This document shows, one piece after another, positions 11,739-63,997 of a DNA stretch of 64,000 nucleotides (its first letter is position 1; every line of letters begins with the position of its first letter). The DNA is from Patescibacteria group bacterium. Its GTDB lineage: Bacteria > Patescibacteriota > Patescibacteriia > PEXW01. The position numbers and the translations under genes were made by a program. Below the pieces are notes generated by a model, which saw only the letters and a list, made by a program, of their open reading frames with translations, searched no databases and was not told where the DNA came from. The stretch covers positions 68,506 through 132,505 of the forward strand of contig JBAZBR010000003.1 in assembly GCA_041671325.1 (NCBI GenBank), written 5' to 3'.

Positions 11739-11841
11739 CCCCGCACCACTTTCTATAATAATCATTTATATAATTTCAATATATTCAGCAAAATAACAAC
11801 TTTAATAATTTGTCTATATTTGATTAGAAAGTGGTGCGGGG
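11739..11841. repeat. inverted-repeat element family 'CCCGCACCACTTTC', copy 1
   Basis: Perfect 15-bp terminal inverted repeats, CCCCGCACCACTTTC and GAAAGTGGTGCGGGG, flank about 73 nt of AT-rich sequence. It lies in the divergent nusA / ORF11923 intergenic region. Confidence 0.6.
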
Positions 11842-17295: not shown

Positions 17296-17400
17296 CTAGA
17301 AAATATTAATCTGTCATTCTGAACCCTGAGCGAGTGTAGCGAGTCGAAGGGGAAGAATCTCCCGTTCTTACGGGATACGAAATAATGATTATTCTGTTTT
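17296..17400. repeat. partial copy of the GTCATYCTGA palindromic repeat family
   Basis: TGTCATTCTGAACCCTGAGCGAGTGTAGCGAGTCGAAGG matches the left end of the copies at 55767, 61567, 62085 and 63606. The right end is degenerate. Confidence 0.4.
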
Positions 17401-17659
17401 CTTGGACATCCACGTTTTGATTACCCTTTCTGGTTTCAGAAAGGGTAAAGGTATATTAGAAAATTGGGGATTTTTGATTCGCTCAAAACTAGGATTATCA
17501 GTGCTAATTGGGAACGGCTCAGCAAAAATCCCCAAACCCCTGACGCTAACTTGCTTTATTTAATCTAACCCCTCACCCCCGCCCTCTCCCAAAGGGAGAG
17601 GGGGTGTGGGTTTAGGATAAGAAAAACCCGCCATATTGCAGACGGGTTTAAAGGCGCGT

Positions 17660-18106: not shown

Positions 18107-18317
18107 ACTCTCCTCACAATTTTGAGTTTAGTTTTGTTTTATAAAAGCCTACTCTATGGTATTTGGAGCGTCAAGATGTGAAAAAATCGGAGTAGAAGCT
18201 TCAGCTTCTGATTTGTTATTACTAAGAGACTTAAGTCTCTACTCCCTTTACTTAAACAGCAAGATTGTTGTGTCCCTGCCTACGGCAGGTCCTCGCAATG
18301 ACAATAAAAAAGCAACC

Positions 18318-25604: not shown

Positions 25605-25850
25605 CGCGTCATTGCGAGCGACGGGTTTCGTGTGGCAACATTTGTTGCCCCACTGCACCCTCTGCTCGCATGCCGCTTTCCCCACGCGCCAGTTCCGCCG
25701 CGTGGGGCCCCCAGGAAGATTTTCGTTCGTGTGCCGCTTTTCCTCACGAATGCGTGCTCCTCCCCCTCGACTCCGCTCGGGGTCGTGCGATCCACATTCG
25801 TGAGGTCAGGTTTCACAAACGTGCCGTTTTCCCAAAAAATATATGCAAAT
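25605..25850 (+). repeat. tRNA-trailer structured element, copy U1
   Basis: CGCGTCATTGCGAGCGACGGGTTTCGTGTG, then hairpin GGCAACATTTGTTGCC, then CCACTGCACCCTCTG-CTCGCATGCCGCTTTCCCC. Further modules end in GTGTGCCGCTTTTCC and GTGCCGTTTTCCC. About 60% GC against a background near 40%. Confidence 0.55.
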
Positions 25851-48858: not shown

Positions 48859-49090
48859 CGCGTCATCACGTGCGACGGGTTTCGTGTGGCAACATTTGTT
48901 GCCCCACTGCACCCTTTGCACGCGTGCCGCTCTCCGTGCGAAGCCTCGCTTAACCACAGAAACGCGTACTCCTTCGCTTTACTCAGTCCGTTCCTCGTTT
49001 CTGTGGCGTTTCGAGTTTTTTCCGTGCGTTCCTCATTTATGAGGTAGGTTCCGTTCGCGTGCCGCTCTCCCCAAATTTGTTTTCAACAAA
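48859..49090 (+). repeat. tRNA-trailer structured element, copy U2
   Basis: CGCGTCATCACGTGCGACGGGTTTCGTGTG, then hairpin GGCAACATTTGTTGCC, then CCACTGCACCCTTTGCACGCGTGCCGCTCTCC. A second module ends CGCGTGCCGCTCTCCCC and is followed by the hairpin CCCCAAATTTGTT..AACAAATTTGGG. Confidence 0.55.
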
Positions 49091-49171: not shown

Positions 49172-49247
49172 GGGAGCATAGCTTAGCTGGTAGAGCAGAC
49201 GCCTCTTAAGCGTACGGTCGGGGGTTCGAATCCCTCTGCTCCCACCA
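49172..49247 (+). tRNA. tRNA-Lys(CTT)
   Basis: Hand fold. Acceptor GGGAGCA/TGCTCCC, anticodon loop CTCTTAA, T-loop TTCGAAT, CCA encoded. Confidence 0.7.
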
Positions 49248-49606
49248 ACCTACGTTTCGCAGACGGAACTTCGGTTGGCAGGCCAAAAACCTACAATTAT
49301 TAGTTTATTGCTATTTTTATGTGGTTTGTATATGGATTGTCATGCAAAGACGACTATCTTTATATCGGATCAACCAATAGTTTAAAACGTCGTGTGTTTG
49401 AACACGATGCTGGCAAATGTTTAACTTCAAAAAACAGATTGCCCTGTAAATTAAAATTTTATATTGCTGTTAACACAGAAAAAACCGCTAGAAATTTGGA
49501 GAAATATTTAAAAACTGGTTCAGGTAAGGCCATTCTAAAAAAACGAATTTTAACTGACGAAGCTTCGTCGAAAGACGAAGCGTAGTCAGCCCCTCTGCTC
49601 CCACCA
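49248..49606 (+). mobile_element. about 359-bp insertion carrying a GIY-YIG nuclease gene, integrated exactly after the tRNA-Lys CCA with a 16-bp duplication of the tRNA 3' end
   Basis: CCCTCTGCTCCCACCA occurs at 49232..49247 (the tRNA 3' end) and again at 49591..49606. The second copy is immediately followed by the canonical trailer start CGCGTCATCGCGAGCGG. Confidence 0.6.
49319..49585 (+). CDS. GIY-YIG nuclease, YhbQ/UPF0213-like
   Basis: WFVYGLSCKDDYLYIGSTNSLKRRVFEHDAGK(C) matches WF[LV]Y.[LI]...D..LY[TI]G.T..[DS]..RR...H..GKG of E. coli YhbQ-type GIY-YIG proteins. 88 aa. Confidence 0.8.
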   Translation: MWFVYGLSCKDDYLYIGSTNSLKRRVFEHDAGKCLTSKNRLPCKLKFYIAVNTEKTARNLEKYLKTGSGKAILKKRILTDEASSKDEA

Positions 49607-49790
49607 CGCGTCATCGCGAGCGGCGGGTTTCGTGTGCCCCGCCCTGGCGGGACCCACTGCACCCTTTGTTCGCGTGCCGCTATCCCCAATTTTTAATAAA
49701 AAATTGGGGACCCCACGAGACATTAGCTTTCACAGGTGTGCCGCTTTTCCCACGCGCCAGTTCCGTCGCGTGGGGCTCCTGAATATACAA
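49607..49790 (+). repeat. tRNA-trailer structured element, copy U3 (displaced from tRNA-Lys by the GIY-YIG insertion)
   Basis: CGCGTCATCGCGAGCGGCGGGTTTCGTGTG, then a different hairpin CCCCGCCCTGGCGGG at the same position as GGCAACATTTGTTGCC in U1 and U2, then CCACTGCACCCTTTGTTCGCGTGCCGCTATCCCC. Further modules are GTGTGCCGCTTTTCCC and ACGCGCCAGTTCCGTCGCGTGGGGC, which are shared with U1. Confidence 0.55.
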
Positions 49791-53391: not shown

Positions 53392-53678
53392 AGTTTTTTC
53401 CTGATTTATTAAAGGTCGCTATTGAGGCGGCCTTTTTCATTTTCTAAAAATTTTCATTAAAAAAATCATCCAGCGCCGGCAGGGACACCGGCGCTGGAAA
53501 AATCTTTAAATTCGTTAGGAAGGAGGCAGGATTGCCACGTCCCCTTCGGCTCCTCCTCGACAAGCTCGGAGTCGCTTTGCTCCTCCTCGCAATGACAGAA
53601 TAACCTCGCAAGGAAATAGAAAGATTGTAAAATACTCCCTCTCCCTTTGGGAGAGGGTCCACGAAGTGGGAGTGAGGG

Positions 53679-55766: not shown

Positions 55767-55868
55767 TGTCATTTCGAGCGAAGCGAAGCGAAGTCGAGAA
55801 ATCTCGTTTTATTCAACTTAGATTCCTCGGTTCACCCCACCAAATGGTGTGGCTCACTCGGAATGACA
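55767..55868. repeat. GTCATYCTGA palindromic element (MITE-like), copy
   Basis: Terminal inverted repeats TGTCATTTCGAGCGAAGCGAAG and CTCACTCGGAATGACA. About 102 nt, upstream of clpP. Confidence 0.55.
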
Positions 55869-56555: not shown

Positions 56556-57447
56556 TTAATTTAATTTGGGTATACCTAGTCAAATGGAACAGGCTTGAGC
56601 GAGATTGATAAGTAGTTATAGGGTGAATCAAATATTTCGGGATGGCTAAATCTTAAGGTAAATTCAGCCACTAATTCCGGCAGGTAATCTGGAGTGACAT
56701 GGTGATACATTCTTCTAATAAAGGTTCTTAAATTGCCGAATAATCCTTCAATCTCTGAGGTTAAGCCAAACTCAAAACTTCTATGTATATCGACTTGATG
56801 TCTAACTTGCCACCAGCGGTTAATACCTTTGTAGATGGCTGAACCATCAGTTTGCAAGCAACTTTTAGGTTCAACGGTTTGGAAGATAAATTGACTCGCC
56901 TCTTGTTTGTCGACTGAGTTTTTGAAAATAACTTGGTGGGCTAGATTTTTAGAGCCAGCTTGTTTAGCCATCAAAAGGGAAAGATCTTTAAAGTAGGCTT
57001 CATCCATTTGAATCTGACCATTTAAAATCGGCTCAAATTGGGGTAAATGGAGCCTAAAGATCCTAAACCAATGTCTAACTGTCATTTCGCTTAAGTGGCA
57101 AAGTTTTTGAGTTTGGAGTACAGGAATCTTTTGAGTCCAACACCAAAGTAAAGCATAAAAGGTGCGTAAGTTTAGTTTTAGGCTTCTAAGCCAAGTGCCA
57201 GACAAGAGGCTAAAAGGTTGACGACAATTTCGGCAACGATATCGATTTTCTGATAAGTAGACCCGTCTTTGGTGACAACGGGGACAAAAGAGATGGCTGC
57301 CAAATATTATTCTTCTAAGCTTCTTTAGAATTTGAGCTTCTGAAGGGAGCTGTTTTAAGAGGGCAATCATATGTAACGCAAGGTTAATGATAGTTAAAGT
57401 CAGCTTAACCTTGTTCCAAATGGTTTAGTATACCCTTTAATTTACCC
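56556..57447 (-). mobile_element. IS1595-family insertion sequence (boundaries approximate)
   Basis: Imperfect terminal inverted repeats around AATTTAATTTGGGTATACC (left) and GGTATACTAAACC..AATT (right) bracket the transposase gene. Confidence 0.45.
56576..57370 (-). CDS. IS1595-family (ISXO2-like) DDE transposase
   Basis: N-terminal zinc ribbon CPRC...CRNC. DDE region IQMDEAYF ... QTDGSAIYKG. Confidence 0.7.
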   Translation of the reverse strand: MIALLKQLPSEAQILKKLRRIIFGSHLFCPRCHQRRVYLSENRYRCRNCRQPFSLLSGTWLRSLKLNLRTFYALLWCWTQKIPVLQTQKLCHLSEMTVRHWFRIFRLHLPQFEPILNGQIQMDEAYFKDLSLLMAKQAGSKNLAHQVIFKNSVDKQEASQFIFQTVEPKSCLQTDGSAIYKGINRWWQVRHQVDIHRSFEFGLTSEIEGLFGNLRTFIRRMYHHVTPDYLPELVAEFTLRFSHPEIFDSPYNYLSISLKPVPFD

Positions 57448-60717: not shown

Positions 60718-61188
60718 TTATTTTCCCTTAATTCTTTTTTCCTCCTCAAATTTTTCTAAAGCAGTATTAAATTTATCATTGGCGGCATTAACTTCCAAAA
60801 TTAAATGGTCAATAATCCCATTGAATAGGTTTGAATTTTTTTCATCAGGCCAAAGCTTCCTATCCTTTAAACTGGAAGCAATGTCCTGGCCTCTTCTTTG
60901 CCCGAATTCCAAAACATTGACCATGGCCAAGTTAAGCCGGCTAATTAATTTTGATTTATCTTCGTTGGGTAAATTTTCTTCATCAAGAATCTTTAATAAT
61001 TCTTCATAAGTTTCATAATAACCACTAATCACAATCTCTTTGGCTATTCGAATATCATCTTCCCCATACAAACCATTAGTCTGGCGGATTTGCGATTCCC
61101 AATCAGCAAAAAATTTTTCCCGATCCCAAGGTCGGCCAGGCATTTCATCGCTAATAGTCGAAATTTCTCGTCCTTCGAATTGGGTCAT
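60718..61188 (-). CDS. hypothetical protein
   Basis: 156 aa, all-alpha and acidic. Confidence 0.35.
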   Translation of the reverse strand: MTQFEGREISTISDEMPGRPWDREKFFADWESQIRQTNGLYGEDDIRIAKEIVISGYYETYEELLKILDEENLPNEDKSKLISRLNLAMVNVLEFGQRRGQDIASSLKDRKLWPDEKNSNLFNGIIDHLILEVNAANDKFNTALEKFEEEKRIKGK

Positions 61189-61201: not shown

Positions 61202-61558
61202 TTAATTTACCAACTTTTCTTCCCTTCTAACCTTATCTAATAACGCCTCGATTTTTTGGGCCTTTCTTTCCCGCACATCAATGACAAAATGCAATGAAGG
61301 GATTCTTTGTAGGACCAAAGTCTTCATCAATTCATGCTGGAGAAAAGGCAGGCGTTTTTTTATTAAAGCCAAGGCTCCGGCTCCGTATTCATCGGGAATA
61401 ACCGAAAGGAAAATTTTAGCATGGCGGATATCACCCGTGGTTTCCACGCGGATAATGCTGACTAAAGCCGGTGGCGGGAAATTAAATTCAGTTAAAAAAA
61501 TTTCTCCAAGTTTTTGCTGGAGCAGGGAATTTAATTGGTTGATGCGTTTTGAGGGCAT
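61202..61558 (-). CDS. rbfA: ribosome-binding factor A
   Basis: R..R..E.I..E...F....V.I..VE.T.D...A.IF pattern. Downstream of infB, as in the canonical operon. Confidence 0.8.
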   Translation of the reverse strand: MPSKRINQLNSLLQQKLGEIFLTEFNFPPPALVSIIRVETTGDIRHAKIFLSVIPDEYGAGALALIKKRLPFLQHELMKTLVLQRIPSLHFVIDVRERKAQKIEALLDKVRREEKLVN

Positions 61559-61566
61559 AAATGTTT

Positions 61567-61671
61567 TGTCATCCTGACGACCTGACCATGGACAGGGAGG
61601 AAGGATCTTTATAAGGATTGAATATTTATGAAGATTCTTCGTCCTCGATCAGGCTCGGACTCAGAATGACA
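61567..61671. repeat. GTCATYCTGA palindromic element (MITE-like), copy
   Basis: TTGTCATCCTGACGACCTGACC...GTCCTCGATCAGGCTCGGACTCAGAATGACAG. It starts 9 nt upstream of the rbfA start codon. Confidence 0.6.
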
Positions 61672-61686
61672 GAAAAAGTTAGTTCT

Positions 61687-62076
61687 TTAGACGCCTTTCA
61701 CCTTGATCCAACTAAGTTTCTGCCATTTGATTAGTTCCTCGGAATAAGGCAAGCCTTTGGGGATGGGGTTAAGGCAAAGTATTTTAATATGTTTATATAA
61801 GGTCAAGTTTAAGCCAATGGCAAAGGCAATTTCCGCAAAAACGCTGGGGCCAATATAATTCGAAACCCCTGATTTTTTAAGATTTAAAACAAACACCTCA
61901 TCAGTCTTAGTAATAGCCTTATAAAAATTTGAGTGTAGTTTTTTGTAATTCAAGCCGACTTTGTTGTTAAATTTTGGATATGCCAAAACTTTATAACCTT
62001 TATTCTCTAAATTTTCTTTCCAGTCAATAGCCTCTTTATAAAAAGACGTACTAGCCGATATAACTACTTTTTTCAT
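61687..62076 (-). CDS. nucleoside 2-deoxyribosyltransferase-like (Nuc_deoxyrib_tr/YtoQ-like) protein
   Basis: N-terminal KKVVISASTSFY (like KIYLAGP.F) and C-terminal SVFAEIAFAIG (like GTAFEIGYA) with a conserved Glu. 129 aa. Flanked by two copies of the MITE-like element. Confidence 0.35.
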   Translation of the reverse strand: MKKVVISASTSFYKEAIDWKENLENKGYKVLAYPKFNNKVGLNYKKLHSNFYKAITKTDEVFVLNLKKSGVSNYIGPSVFAEIAFAIGLNLTLYKHIKILCLNPIPKGLPYSEELIKWQKLSWIKVKGV

Positions 62077-62084
62077 ATGATTAT

Positions 62085-62224
62085 TGTCATCCTGACGACC
62101 TGCCTATGAGCAGGGAGGAAGGATCTTAATAAGGCTAAAATTTATAAAGATTCTCCCGCCTACCTTCGCCAGACGAAGTTCGGCGGGCAGGTCGTCCTCG
62201 ATCAGACTCGGATTCAGAATGACA
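62085..62224. repeat. GTCATYCTGA palindromic element (MITE-like), longer variant
   Basis: Same termini as the 61567 copy, in the same orientation, with an internal 30-nt insertion. It lies between the infB stop and the start of the 62076 gene. Confidence 0.6.
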
Positions 62225-62230
62225 GGGATG

Positions 62231-63997
62231 TTAATTTTCTAACTTCCTCGGGACTAATTTTTCTTCTACGAAAACCAAGGTATCACCTTCTTGTAAACCG
62301 TTTACGCCAACCAATTTCAAACCGCATTCGTCATTCAGGCCGACTTCGCCGACATTTTGTTTATTTTTCTGTAATTGTTCCAAATTAACTTGGCCTAAAA
62401 CTTTATTATTCCGAAAAGCCCTAACTTTGGCTTTGGCTTTAATAGTACCTTCTGTAACCTTAGCGCCGAGAATCGTGTTCTTGCCTTCAGCCCGGAAAAT
62501 TTTCAAGATCCTGGCTTGGCCAATAGCTTCTTCCACGATATCTGCGCCTAGTCTTTCTTCCAAACCTTTTTTAATATCATCTAAAAGTTCATAAATTACC
62601 GTATAGGTTTTGACTTTAGCTTTGGTATTGGCAACGGCTTTTTGGTTGGCGCTGACATTAAAGCCAATCAGCCAGGCGCCAGCTTGTTCCGCGCGCAAGA
62701 CATCCGCTTCATTAATATCGCCCAAAGCTTGGCCCACAACTTCTGGCCGCACTTCTTTGAAAGTGAAAGTTTTCAAGCTTTCCAAAATGGCTTCCAAAGA
62801 ACCAACCTTGTCGGCTTTCAAAAATAACGGAAGTTTTTTGGCTTCACCATCAATACCTTTGCCCGCAATAACCGAAGCGGTTTTGGCTGATTCCCGAGCT
62901 TTTATCTGCATCAATCTTAAAGTCGCCTCTTGTTGTTTCATTAATTTCCTGGCAGCCTTTTCGTTTTCCGGCGCTTCCAAAACATCACCCACGGCTGGCG
63001 CGGCTTTCAGACCTAAAATAACCACAGGCATGGAAGGCGGGGCATGCTGGGTCATTTGCCCATTCCAATCTTTCAAACTTTTTACTTTGCCAATGACCGA
63101 GCCTGCGGCAATAAAATCCCCGACATTTAAGGTGCCGTTTTGGATTAAGATAGTTGCCACTGGGCCTTCGCCTGGATCAACATGGGATTCAATGACCGTG
63201 CCCACGAGTTTGCCTTTGGGATTGGCCATAAGCAGGTCTTTTTCCATGTCCGCGACCAGTAAAATTGATTCCAGCAAATCATCAATGCCTTTGCCTGACT
63301 TGGCTGAAACGCCCACGGTAATAACTTTACCGCCCCAATCTTCGGGTTGCAGGTTGATGGAAGCCAATTCAGTTTTGACTTTTTCCAAACCAGCGCCTTC
63401 CTTGTCAATTTTATTAATGGCCACCACAAAAGGGATTTTGGTACGTTCGATAATATTCAAAGCTTCGCGAGTTTGGGGTTTGATGCCGTCATCCGCGGCA
63501 ATCACCAAAATACAGACATCGGCAATATTCGCGCCGCGGGAACGCATGGCCGTGAAAGCTTCATGGCCGGGCGTATCTATAAAGGTGATCGCGCGCCCCG
63601 CGCGGTCATCCCGAGTCCCTCGAGGGATCCCTCCCTCGCTTTCGCTCTGTCGGGATGATTGTTCCTCCATTGTCGGAACAATCACCTGGTAAGCGCCAAT
63701 ATGCTGGGTAATGCCGCCGTGTTCTTTGCCTGCGACATTGGTTTTACGGATGACATCCAACAAGCTGGTTTTGCCATGGTCAACATGGCCCATGACCACG
63801 ACGACTGGCGGCCGAGGAGTGGTTCTGTCTTTATCAGCCGAAATAATTTCCGAAACTTTTTTCGCCAAGTCAGTTTCCCTTTCCGAAGTGGTTTTTTCTT
63901 TTTGCGGTTTTATTTCCGCGCCAAAATCCGAACCGACAATAGAGGCCGTATCAAAATCAATTTCTTCGTTTAAAGTCGCCAGAATTCCATTCTTCAT
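62231..63997 (-). CDS. infB: translation initiation factor IF-2, carrying an in-frame palindromic insertion in the G domain. The N-terminus may extend beyond the window.
   Basis: G1 GHVDHGKTSLLD, G3 DTPGH, G4 NKID, and a C-terminal beta-barrel. About 24 extra residues sit between AYQV and ITFIDTPGH compared with other IF-2 proteins. Confidence 0.85.
   Translation of the reverse strand: MKNGILATLNEEIDFDTASIVGSDFGAEIKPQKEKTTSERETDLAKKVSEIISADKDRTTPRPPVVVVMGHVDHGKTSLLDVIRKTNVAGKEHGGITQHIGAYQVIVPTMEEQSSRQSESEGGIPRGTRDDRAGRAITFIDTPGHEAFTAMRSRGANIADVCILVIAADDGIKPQTREALNIIERTKIPFVVAINKIDKEGAGLEKVKTELASINLQPEDWGGKVITVGVSAKSGKGIDDLLESILLVADMEKDLLMANPKGKLVGTVIESHVDPGEGPVATILIQNGTLNVGDFIAAGSVIGKVKSLKDWNGQMTQHAPPSMPVVILGLKAAPAVGDVLEAPENEKAARKLMKQQEATLRLMQIKARESAKTASVIAGKGIDGEAKKLPLFLKADKVGSLEAILESLKTFTFKEVRPEVVGQALGDINEADVLRAEQAGAWLIGFNVSANQKAVANTKAKVKTYTVIYELLDDIKKGLEERLGADIVEEAIGQARILKIFRAEGKNTILGAKVTEGTIKAKAKVRAFRNNKVLGQVNLEQLQKNKQNVGEVGLNDECGLKLVGVNGLQEGDTLVFVEEKLVPRKLEN
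63591..63683 (-). repeat. palindromic element of the GTCATYCTGA family inserted in frame within infB
   Basis: TCATCCCGACAGAGCGAAAGCGAGGGAGGGATCCCTCGAGGGACTCGGGATGA (minus strand), plus the hairpin GTTCC-TCCATTGTC-GGAAC. It encodes IVPTMEEQSSRQSESEGGIPRGTRDDRAGRA. Local GC is about 65%. Confidence 0.55.

Follow-up and report, generated by a model that had tools for sequence, protein, structure and literature searches.

The repeats described in this report are closest to the repetitive extragenic palindromic (REP) sequences of the CGTC-tagged superfamily. These units carry a CGTC tag (often TGTC, also CCTC), a stem that starts with A-T and a CCA-like tail, and they are mostly arranged as head-to-head (HH) dimers with the tags outside, which lie between unidirectional or convergent genes and close to their 3' ends (Di Nocera, De Gregorio and Rocco, 2013; PMC3733652). 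Some dimers are in frame within genes and code for 20-30 amino acids, for example SFPRKRES...RGND; the superfamily includes dRS3/NTS of Neisseria as well as RPE-4 and RPE-6 of Rickettsia conorii and has no known dedicated transposase (PMC3733652). The published families have stems of 8-9 bp and loops of 4-5 nt and are reported there from five phyla, Patescibacteria not among them (PMC3733652). Here we describe two palindromic elements, A and B, in a stretch of 64,000 nucleotides (the window) from a Patescibacteria group bacterium (assembly GCA_041671325.1, contig JBAZBR010000003.1). They flank a 129-aa open reading frame (ORF129) between infB and rbfA, and they are very probably two recent copies of one REP dimer of the CGTC/TGTC superfamily, which was copied as a unit into the spacers of a pre-existing infB-ORF129-rbfA operon, while ORF129 was neither brought nor captured in the process. 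The elements are filed as a new family within the known CGTC superfamily and not as SRMs in the strict sense, and with them the REP superfamily is now found in a phylum absent from the survey's report.

Several other described systems share parts of this anatomy. SsnA, a small GIY-YIG nuclease, binds and cuts the NTS repeat CGTCATTCCCGCGMAVGCGGGAATCYRG only when this is single-stranded DNA; the GTC ahead of the palindrome and the C behind it are the determinants of Ssn cleavage and binding, and genes flanked by NTS are shielded from replacement by transformation (Chenal et al., 2025; PMC11893778). The elements of the window follow the same CGTC-AT-stem...stem-AT-C logic with conserved GTC and C, they are likewise found around particular genes ('NTS-gene-NTS'), and here, too, repeat-adjacent genes are more diverged between genomes. 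They resemble REPINs/BIMEs in that a pair of inverted REP hairpins combines into a single long one, in the lack of target-site duplications and in that the doublet is what gets copied, with singlets as remnants, but their tag is GTC and not the GTAG of the REPIN/RAYT system (Bertels and Rainey, 2011; PMC3116915). With Correia/NEMIS and other miniature inverted-repeat transposable elements (MITEs) they have in common a length of ~100-150 nt, long and short variants, terminal inverted repeats and an expected intergenic co-transcription, whereas unit-level covariation, the lack of target-site duplications and the lack of related insertion sequence (IS) ends set them apart. Because target-site duplications are missing, the elements are not classical MITEs, and the term 'MITE-like', which an earlier note on this DNA had used, is imprecise: anatomically they are tagged REP dimers, and their ends are unlike those of the only IS in the window.

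Between 59.5 and 64 kb of the window the minus strand is the coding strand of every gene, in the order infB, ORF129, rbfA, a 156-aa ORF and a DHH/DHHA1 gene. The infB gene (62231..63997; IF2, TIGR00487, E 1.5e-155) is cut at its 5' end by the window edge and comprises 689 codons in the 209,908-bp source contig beyond it, ORF129 is located at 61687..62076, and rbfA (61202..61558) matches PF02033 with E 3e-20. Nearly all of the two spacers around ORF129 is taken up by the elements, both on the minus strand. In the ORF129-rbfA spacer, element A (61567..61672, 106 nt) is a head-to-head REP heterodimer of the units 61670->61634 and 61568->61606, which begins 9 nt from the rbfA ATG and lies 14 nt past the ORF129 stop. 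Element B (62085..62225, 141 nt), in the infB-ORF129 spacer, likewise consists of two TGTC-tagged REP units placed head to head, 62223->62150 and 62086->62124, and lies 5-6 nt past the infB stop and ~8-10 nt ahead of the ORF129 ATG. Contigs from three independent samples and assemblies agree in every position of the 1,050 nt that run from the start of rbfA to the end of infB, and the repeats are therefore not an artefact of contig joining, a possibility that the earlier note had raised; its description of two same-orientation palindromic elements around the ORF, the downstream one 9 nt from the rbfA start, is borne out by coordinates, folding and these three assemblies.

Elements A and B share their orientation, their two unit types and the order of these units. 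One half combines ATCCT/AGGAT with a CCTG..CAGG loop hairpin, the other carries ATTCT/AGAAT, and the outer ends read TGTCAT...ATGACA. All four units are tagged TGTC (ttGTCAT or ctGTCAT) and have the tail CTT, in contrast to the CCA consensus given for the superfamily; five Watson-Crick pairs are followed by G-A/A-G mismatches and a loop of 18-60 nt. Across the first 50 nt the two elements are 90% identical and across the last 34 nt 94%; B alone has an additional central, GC-rich hairpin of ~35 nt in the loop of its infB-proximal unit. The window contains two copies of their 28-nt end motif, compared with 0.00 expected from shuffles. On the gene strand A folds with -41.5 kcal/mol (z -5.6 vs shuffles) and B with -57.4 kcal/mol (z -5.1); the opposite strand folds about equally well, with no G-U asymmetry that would favour the mRNA strand. 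Promoter and terminator scans revealed no promoter-like or terminator-like site inside the elements, including no terminator T-run; the effect of A on the promoter and ribosome-binding site of rbfA that the earlier note envisaged is hypothetical. The features shared with the CGTC superfamily are thus the TGTC variant of the tag, the GTC-AT...AT-C units, a tail starting with C, the HH arrangement near 3' ends and, as detailed below, an in-frame dimer of 25 codons.

The relative age of gene and elements was assessed by comparison with the closest relative found, Candidatus Kerfeldbacteria CG08 (GCA_002774575.1), the only close one. Its gene order is bactofilin, DAGK, infB, an ORF (138 aa, 71% identical to ORF129), rbfA, DHH gene and clpP. 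The ORF thus occupies the same position between infB and rbfA. At the site of A the CG08 spacer is empty (57 nt, without an element), while the infB-ORF spacer (111 nt) holds a different, partly decayed superfamily member, ATCATTGCGAGGATTTGCGAAGCAATCTT...CTCGGGATGACA, which ends just as far from the ORF start as element B does; its orientation relative to B yields alignment scores of 75 vs 65, which are too close to decide. A different, decayed dimer also occupies the spot after clpP in CG08, and the two shared sites, infB-ORF and post-clpP, have undergone complete sequence turnover between the genomes. Protein identities to CG08 are 90% for IF2, 91% for RbfA and 89% for the DHH protein, and four-fold degenerate sites are just 46-58% identical, which means that neutral sites are near saturation. 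Since A and B are 90-94% alike while neutral sites are near saturation, their copying is much younger than the split of the lineages; judged by these sequence comparisons, one must have been copied from the other, or both from a shared source, well after the separation from the CG08 lineage and into an operon in which ORF129 was already resident. A tiny-genome lineage of Patescibacteria hence carries recently active REP-type repeats.

Further units are present elsewhere in the window. Under a strict definition, (T/C)GTC-AT-xyz-GA(G/C)...loop...z'y'x'-AT-C, read inward from either end, the window contains 10 units compared with 0.26 +/- 0.5 in shuffles; a loose regular expression was discarded as noisy (41 matches vs 28 in shuffles). 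The strict units form four HH dimers (A, B, 55768-55867 and 63605-63659) and two singles (17313 and 53596), to which a degenerate unit at 18302 is added. The dimer at 55768..55867 (minus strand; units ATTTC/GAAAT and ATTCC/GGAAT) starts 8 nt past the clpP stop, and because clpP is on the minus strand this is downstream of the gene, whereas the earlier note had placed a member upstream of clpP at 55767. The units of the clpP dimer and both single units carry the TGTC tag. The singles are located at 17313..17358 (plus strand, ATTCT/AGAAT) and, between convergent genes, at 53531..53596 (minus strand, ATTGC/GCAAT); the degenerate unit (18258..18302, minus strand) reads GTCATTGCGAGGACCTGCCGTAGGCAGGG..ACAATCTT and has the CCTGCC..GGCAGG loop hairpin in common with A and B. 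The earlier note was right that these palindromes form a dispersed family, with members near clpP, near 17296 and within infB, although its copy at 17296 is the single unit at 17313-17358. A short dispersed hairpin, CCCTCTCCCAAAGGGAGAGGG, is seen in intergenic DNA at 17582-17605 and 53634-53657, each time near a single REP unit.

The copy inside infB, also reported in the earlier note, is real. Relative to the Kerfeldbacteria orthologue, 75 nt (63608..63682, minus strand; 25 codons) are inserted in frame into the region encoding the G domain of IF2, with boundaries that are ambiguous by a few nt. The insertion is composed of a short REP head-to-head dimer (63605-63659), tagged GGTC in one unit and AATC in the other, and a small hairpin. 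It encodes IVPTMEEQSSRQSESEGGIPRGTRD, which in the alignment of IF2 with CG08 appears as one clean insert of 25 residues followed by four changed residues. The insert lies between GGITQHIGAYQV and ITFIDTPGH, a site that, going by the motif order of translational GTPases, falls between G2 and G3, in the loop of a hairpin. A REP repeat is thus tolerated within the GTPase domain of an essential factor. Ogata et al. are said to have described in 2000 how Rickettsia palindromic elements are inserted in frame in protein genes, and the clean in-frame insert in an essential, conserved protein resembles these cases; in contrast to them, the host lies outside the Rickettsia lineage and the 64 kb contain one intragenic case. 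The ends of the insert, SSRQSES...TRDD, fit the frame and the ends of the published CGTC peptides SFPRKRES...DSRFRGND (supplementary list of PMC3733652) and resemble SFLRKQES...RGND of R. conorii CGTC-1. Two independent short-read Logan contigs of the locus break within infB, ~100 nt downstream of the in-frame insertion, which is consistent with a palindrome that disrupts assembly.

In order to place the units in a wider context, the end pattern GTCATTSYGAG-N55-85-CTCRSAATGAC was searched in a viral and a species-representative genome collection, each of which returned at least 120 matches. Hosts among the matches listed are Alpha- and Gammaproteobacteria, Bacteroidota, Acidobacteriota, Chloroflexota, Planctomycetota, Ignavibacteriota and several Patescibacteria, including Bradyrhizobium, sphingomonads and the group Mucilaginibacter/Pedobacter/Flavobacterium. 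From both collections 252 distinct dimers (504 halves) were assembled. In 451 of the 504 halves the exact complement of the half's own terminal pentamer is found inside that half, and in 14 of 22 hybrid dimers the left and right halves use different pentamers, with each half self-complementary; as these halves pair within themselves, the half is the base-paired hairpin unit. Of 250 dimers, 56% have C and 38% have T at position -1, and the tail, which starts with C in all units, is CCAG or CCAT in 199 and CTC in 100 of the 451 halves. Modal loop lengths are 9 and 15 nt, and the commonest loops, when the G of the GAG ahead of them is included, read GCGNAGC, with all four N seen. The oligonucleotide d(GCGNAGC) is a classic, very stable DNA mini-hairpin, and these loops are a hint, though no proof, that the relevant folded state is one of DNA. 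In 250 dimers the flanks have Y at -1/-2 and R at +1/+2, and flanking direct repeats were no commoner than in shuffled pairings, which gives no sign of target-site duplications. Dimers of the 'GTCATTGCGAG...GCAATCC' class are abundant in a wide range of phyla and in alphaproteobacterial prophage regions and regions like those of gene transfer agents (GTAs). The class is not contained in Rfam 15, and the published SRM string matches 0 of the 252 dimers, though canonical SRMs are present in 11 of the same genome loci. This short-stem class, extremely widespread and with clear within-unit covariation, has thus been missed by both Rfam and the SRM search string.

Several observations weigh against the proposed assignment and history of A and B. 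Their five pairs and loops of 18-60 nt, often with a hairpin of their own, depart from the stems and loops published for the CGTC superfamily. The published SRM string, HGTCWYN(0-2)YYVSBRHN(0-5)WNVSBRGN(0-2)RNCYNB, has 0 matches in the window, though this regular expression does match the NTS consensus. In nearest-neighbour DNA folding single units perform no better than shuffles (z ~0), and the case for the unit hairpin is therefore comparative, based on covariation, and not thermodynamic. An exact 24-mer of the A/B subfamily gave 0 matches in metagenome and genome collections, neither of which contains the source genome; because it was found nowhere else, 'dispersed' is shown for the superfamily and not for the A/B subfamily. 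The choice between insertion and deletion at the A site is made with one close relative and rests on the age argument rather than on an outgroup. Furthermore, no mobilising enzyme was identified among the candidates examined, namely IS1595, RAYT, GIY-YIG and recurrent neighbour genes.

The individual candidates and comparisons gave the following picture. The ends of the IS1595 element, GGGTATAC..., are unrelated to the elements, and it was rejected as an autonomous partner. With RAYT/IS200 sequences as queries, tblastn found none in the window or source locus (~74 kb), and in 240 element-bearing loci it returned 2 weak RAYT-like matches, neither of which is flanked by units. ORF clustering within 1.5 kb of 250 elements for a linked enzyme showed only phage/GTA structural and housekeeping families to recur. 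No Ssn homologue was identified in ~74 kb of the genome; the only GIY-YIG gene of the window (49319..49585) has no units in its flanks and was dismissed as an Ssn partner, its homologues being linked to tRNAs and likewise devoid of flanking units. An Rfam scan of the window and 14 element-bearing loci, at gathering and at permissive E-value thresholds, gave tRNAs and chance miRNA-like matches only, and a hammerhead ribozyme core was dismissed by eye, the CUGANGA box being absent. Full-text literature searches with the element strings found primers and vectors only, and those on MITEs in the candidate phyla radiation (CPR) found nothing relevant.

In the earlier note the locus had been taken for a cassette inserted between infB and rbfA by elements that mobilise or capture small genes. 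Read in this way, A and B would form the ends of a composite mobile unit, which brought ORF129 to the junction or could remove it again, and it is true that two same-orientation copies directly flank one small accessory-type gene, that the ORF129 family is patchy and found in varied contexts in other genomes, and that ORF129 is 71% identical to its CG08 counterpart vs ~90% for the neighbours. CG08, however, has the gene in place without the downstream element and with a different upstream one, which is largely the result that the earlier note had named as contrary to its reading. A and B are far younger than the residence of ORF129 at the locus, the more distant homologues of ORF129 (50-63% identical) stand in unrelated neighbourhoods, none of those examined has units nearby, and no duplication flanks the composite. 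Both the insertion of a cassette and the capture of genes are contradicted by these findings, a composite unit is very unlikely, and gene capture can be set aside as a false lead for this window. Scarcely credible is a variant in which the elements are attC-type sites of an integron-like cluster that lacks its integrase: sizes of 106 and 141 nt, imperfect palindromy and one promoterless small ORF between two same-orientation sites do recall attC, but the ends are TGTCAT...ATGACA instead of RYYYAAC...GTTRRRY, the family members are dispersed singly, even within infB, and within 10 kb there is no tyrosine integrase, the only nearby recombinase being a large serine recombinase.

It is also conceivable, if unlikely, that the elements are selected cis-regulatory RNA hairpins which set differential expression within the infB-ORF129-rbfA transcript, as an RNase III site, a barrier to 3' exonucleases or a cause of ribosome stalling. 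For REPs of E. coli, Liang, Rudd and Deutscher reportedly described in 2015 ribosome stalling at stop codons next to hairpins. The predicted RNA folds are very stable, they are placed 5-14 nt past stops and 9-10 nt before starts, read-through is expected without a terminator T-run, and CG08 also retains a REP dimer both after infB and after clpP. Selection for such a role fits poorly with the absence of A from CG08, the complete sequence turnover at the shared sites, the occurrence of the same family within a coding region and in convergent spacers, and the equal folding of both strands without G-U asymmetry for the mRNA strand.

For the recent copying of one REP dimer, which we prefer, a mechanism can be outlined. 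The dimer would spread via a folded single-stranded DNA intermediate that is handled by a hairpin-specific enzyme; to date, recognition of this class of repeats has been demonstrated for no enzyme other than a nuclease of the Ssn GIY-YIG type. Copies would thus have reached the two spacers around ORF129, and others landed after clpP and, in frame, within infB. As they carry no terminator, elements in operon spacers would be co-transcribed and form long RNA hairpins at the distances from stops and starts given above, which may, as a side effect, influence the decay or processing of the mRNA or the (termination-coupled) translation of adjacent genes. The 2013 survey left open which enzyme copies CGTC-type REPs, and a reduced genome in which the copies are young is well suited to a search for it. 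An extension of this outline by analogy with Neisseria, which we regard as improbable though worth stating, is that the dimers flanking ORF129 act like 'NTS-gene-NTS': a hairpin-specific nuclease would cut incoming or replicating single strands and control the replacement or repair of ORF129 by recombination in a DNA-uptake-dependent Patescibacteria cell, and the short-stem, long-loop 'GTCATTGCGAG...GCAATCC' class would constitute a second, undescribed, pan-bacterial class of nuclease-target specificity. If true, this would explain why ORF129 is 71% identical to its CG08 counterpart and its neighbours ~90%.

ORF129 itself has no match in Pfam or NCBIfam. At E <= 1e-3 it has 85 homologues, which belong to Patescibacteria and DPANN archaea. 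A structure predicted with AF2 from 47 homologues reached pLDDT 94.1 and pTM 0.89, and its top Foldseek matches in the PDB are 4jen (BcmB, a CMP N-glycosidase), 8qc0 and 2a0k (nucleoside 2-deoxyribosyltransferases, NDT) and DNPH1. Their E values range from 2e-4 to 1e-3 and their TM scores from 0.55 to 0.62, and TIR domains come next in the list. The model supports an NDT/DNPH1/BcmB-like variant of the flavodoxin-like fold, in line with the NDT-like salvage enzyme suggested in the earlier note. Weak matches to PF05014 are found in 4 of the 47 homologues (best E 0.014). Residue E82, within the conserved YIGPSVFAEIAFA motif, is nearly invariant among homologues, and this motif points to a putative catalytic competence. 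Homologues of ORF129 in DPANN archaea (Nanoarchaeota, Aenigmarchaeota) are 55-63% identical, and one of them lies between the genes for eIF2-gamma and ribosomal protein S6e; such similarity suggests that a small NDT-like gene may have been transferred between ultra-small bacteria and archaea.

Some further features of the window were noted in passing. The 156-aa ORF (60718..61188, minus strand), which has no family match, separates rbfA from the DHH gene, and CG08 has a 368-nt non-coding spacer instead. Motif pairs CCCCGCACCACTTTC...GAAAGTGGTGCGGGG, inverted and ~60-80 nt apart, occur in intergenic DNA at 11739/11819, 38462/38507, 47320/47401 and 60557/60640; the last pair has 24-nt arms that are 96% complementary. 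A pair of this kind is also found 5' of the DHH gene in CG08 and is thus conserved, unlike the REP elements. The IS of the IS1595 family (56568-57435) encodes a 264-aa transposase, has terminal repeats GGGTATACC... and is flanked by clpP and a 631-aa ORF; the orthologous region of CG08 lacks it.

The GIY-YIG gene (49319..49585, plus strand) encodes a single-domain protein of 88 aa and directly follows tRNA-Lys within an element at 49248-49606. A conserved leader, ACCTACG...CTTCGGTTGGCAGGCCAA, lies ahead of the gene, which is followed by GCGTAGTCAG and a second copy of the last 16 nt of tRNA-Lys (49232-49247 = 49591-49606). All contexts fetched for its homologues (Patescibacteria, Melioribacteraceae and others) have the same arrangement of tRNA, leader, gene and duplicated tRNA 3' end, and to judge from this sequence pattern the unit may be a very small mobile element that targets tRNA genes and regenerates the tRNA end. 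Downstream of each of three tRNA genes (Ala, Arg and Lys) is a GC-rich repeated block of ~200 nt (25605-25830, 48859-49090 and 49607-49790), which has no Rfam match. These blocks begin right after CCA with CGCGTCATYGCGAGCGRCGGG and contain several hairpins, each of which is preceded by GTGCCGCTNTCCCC.

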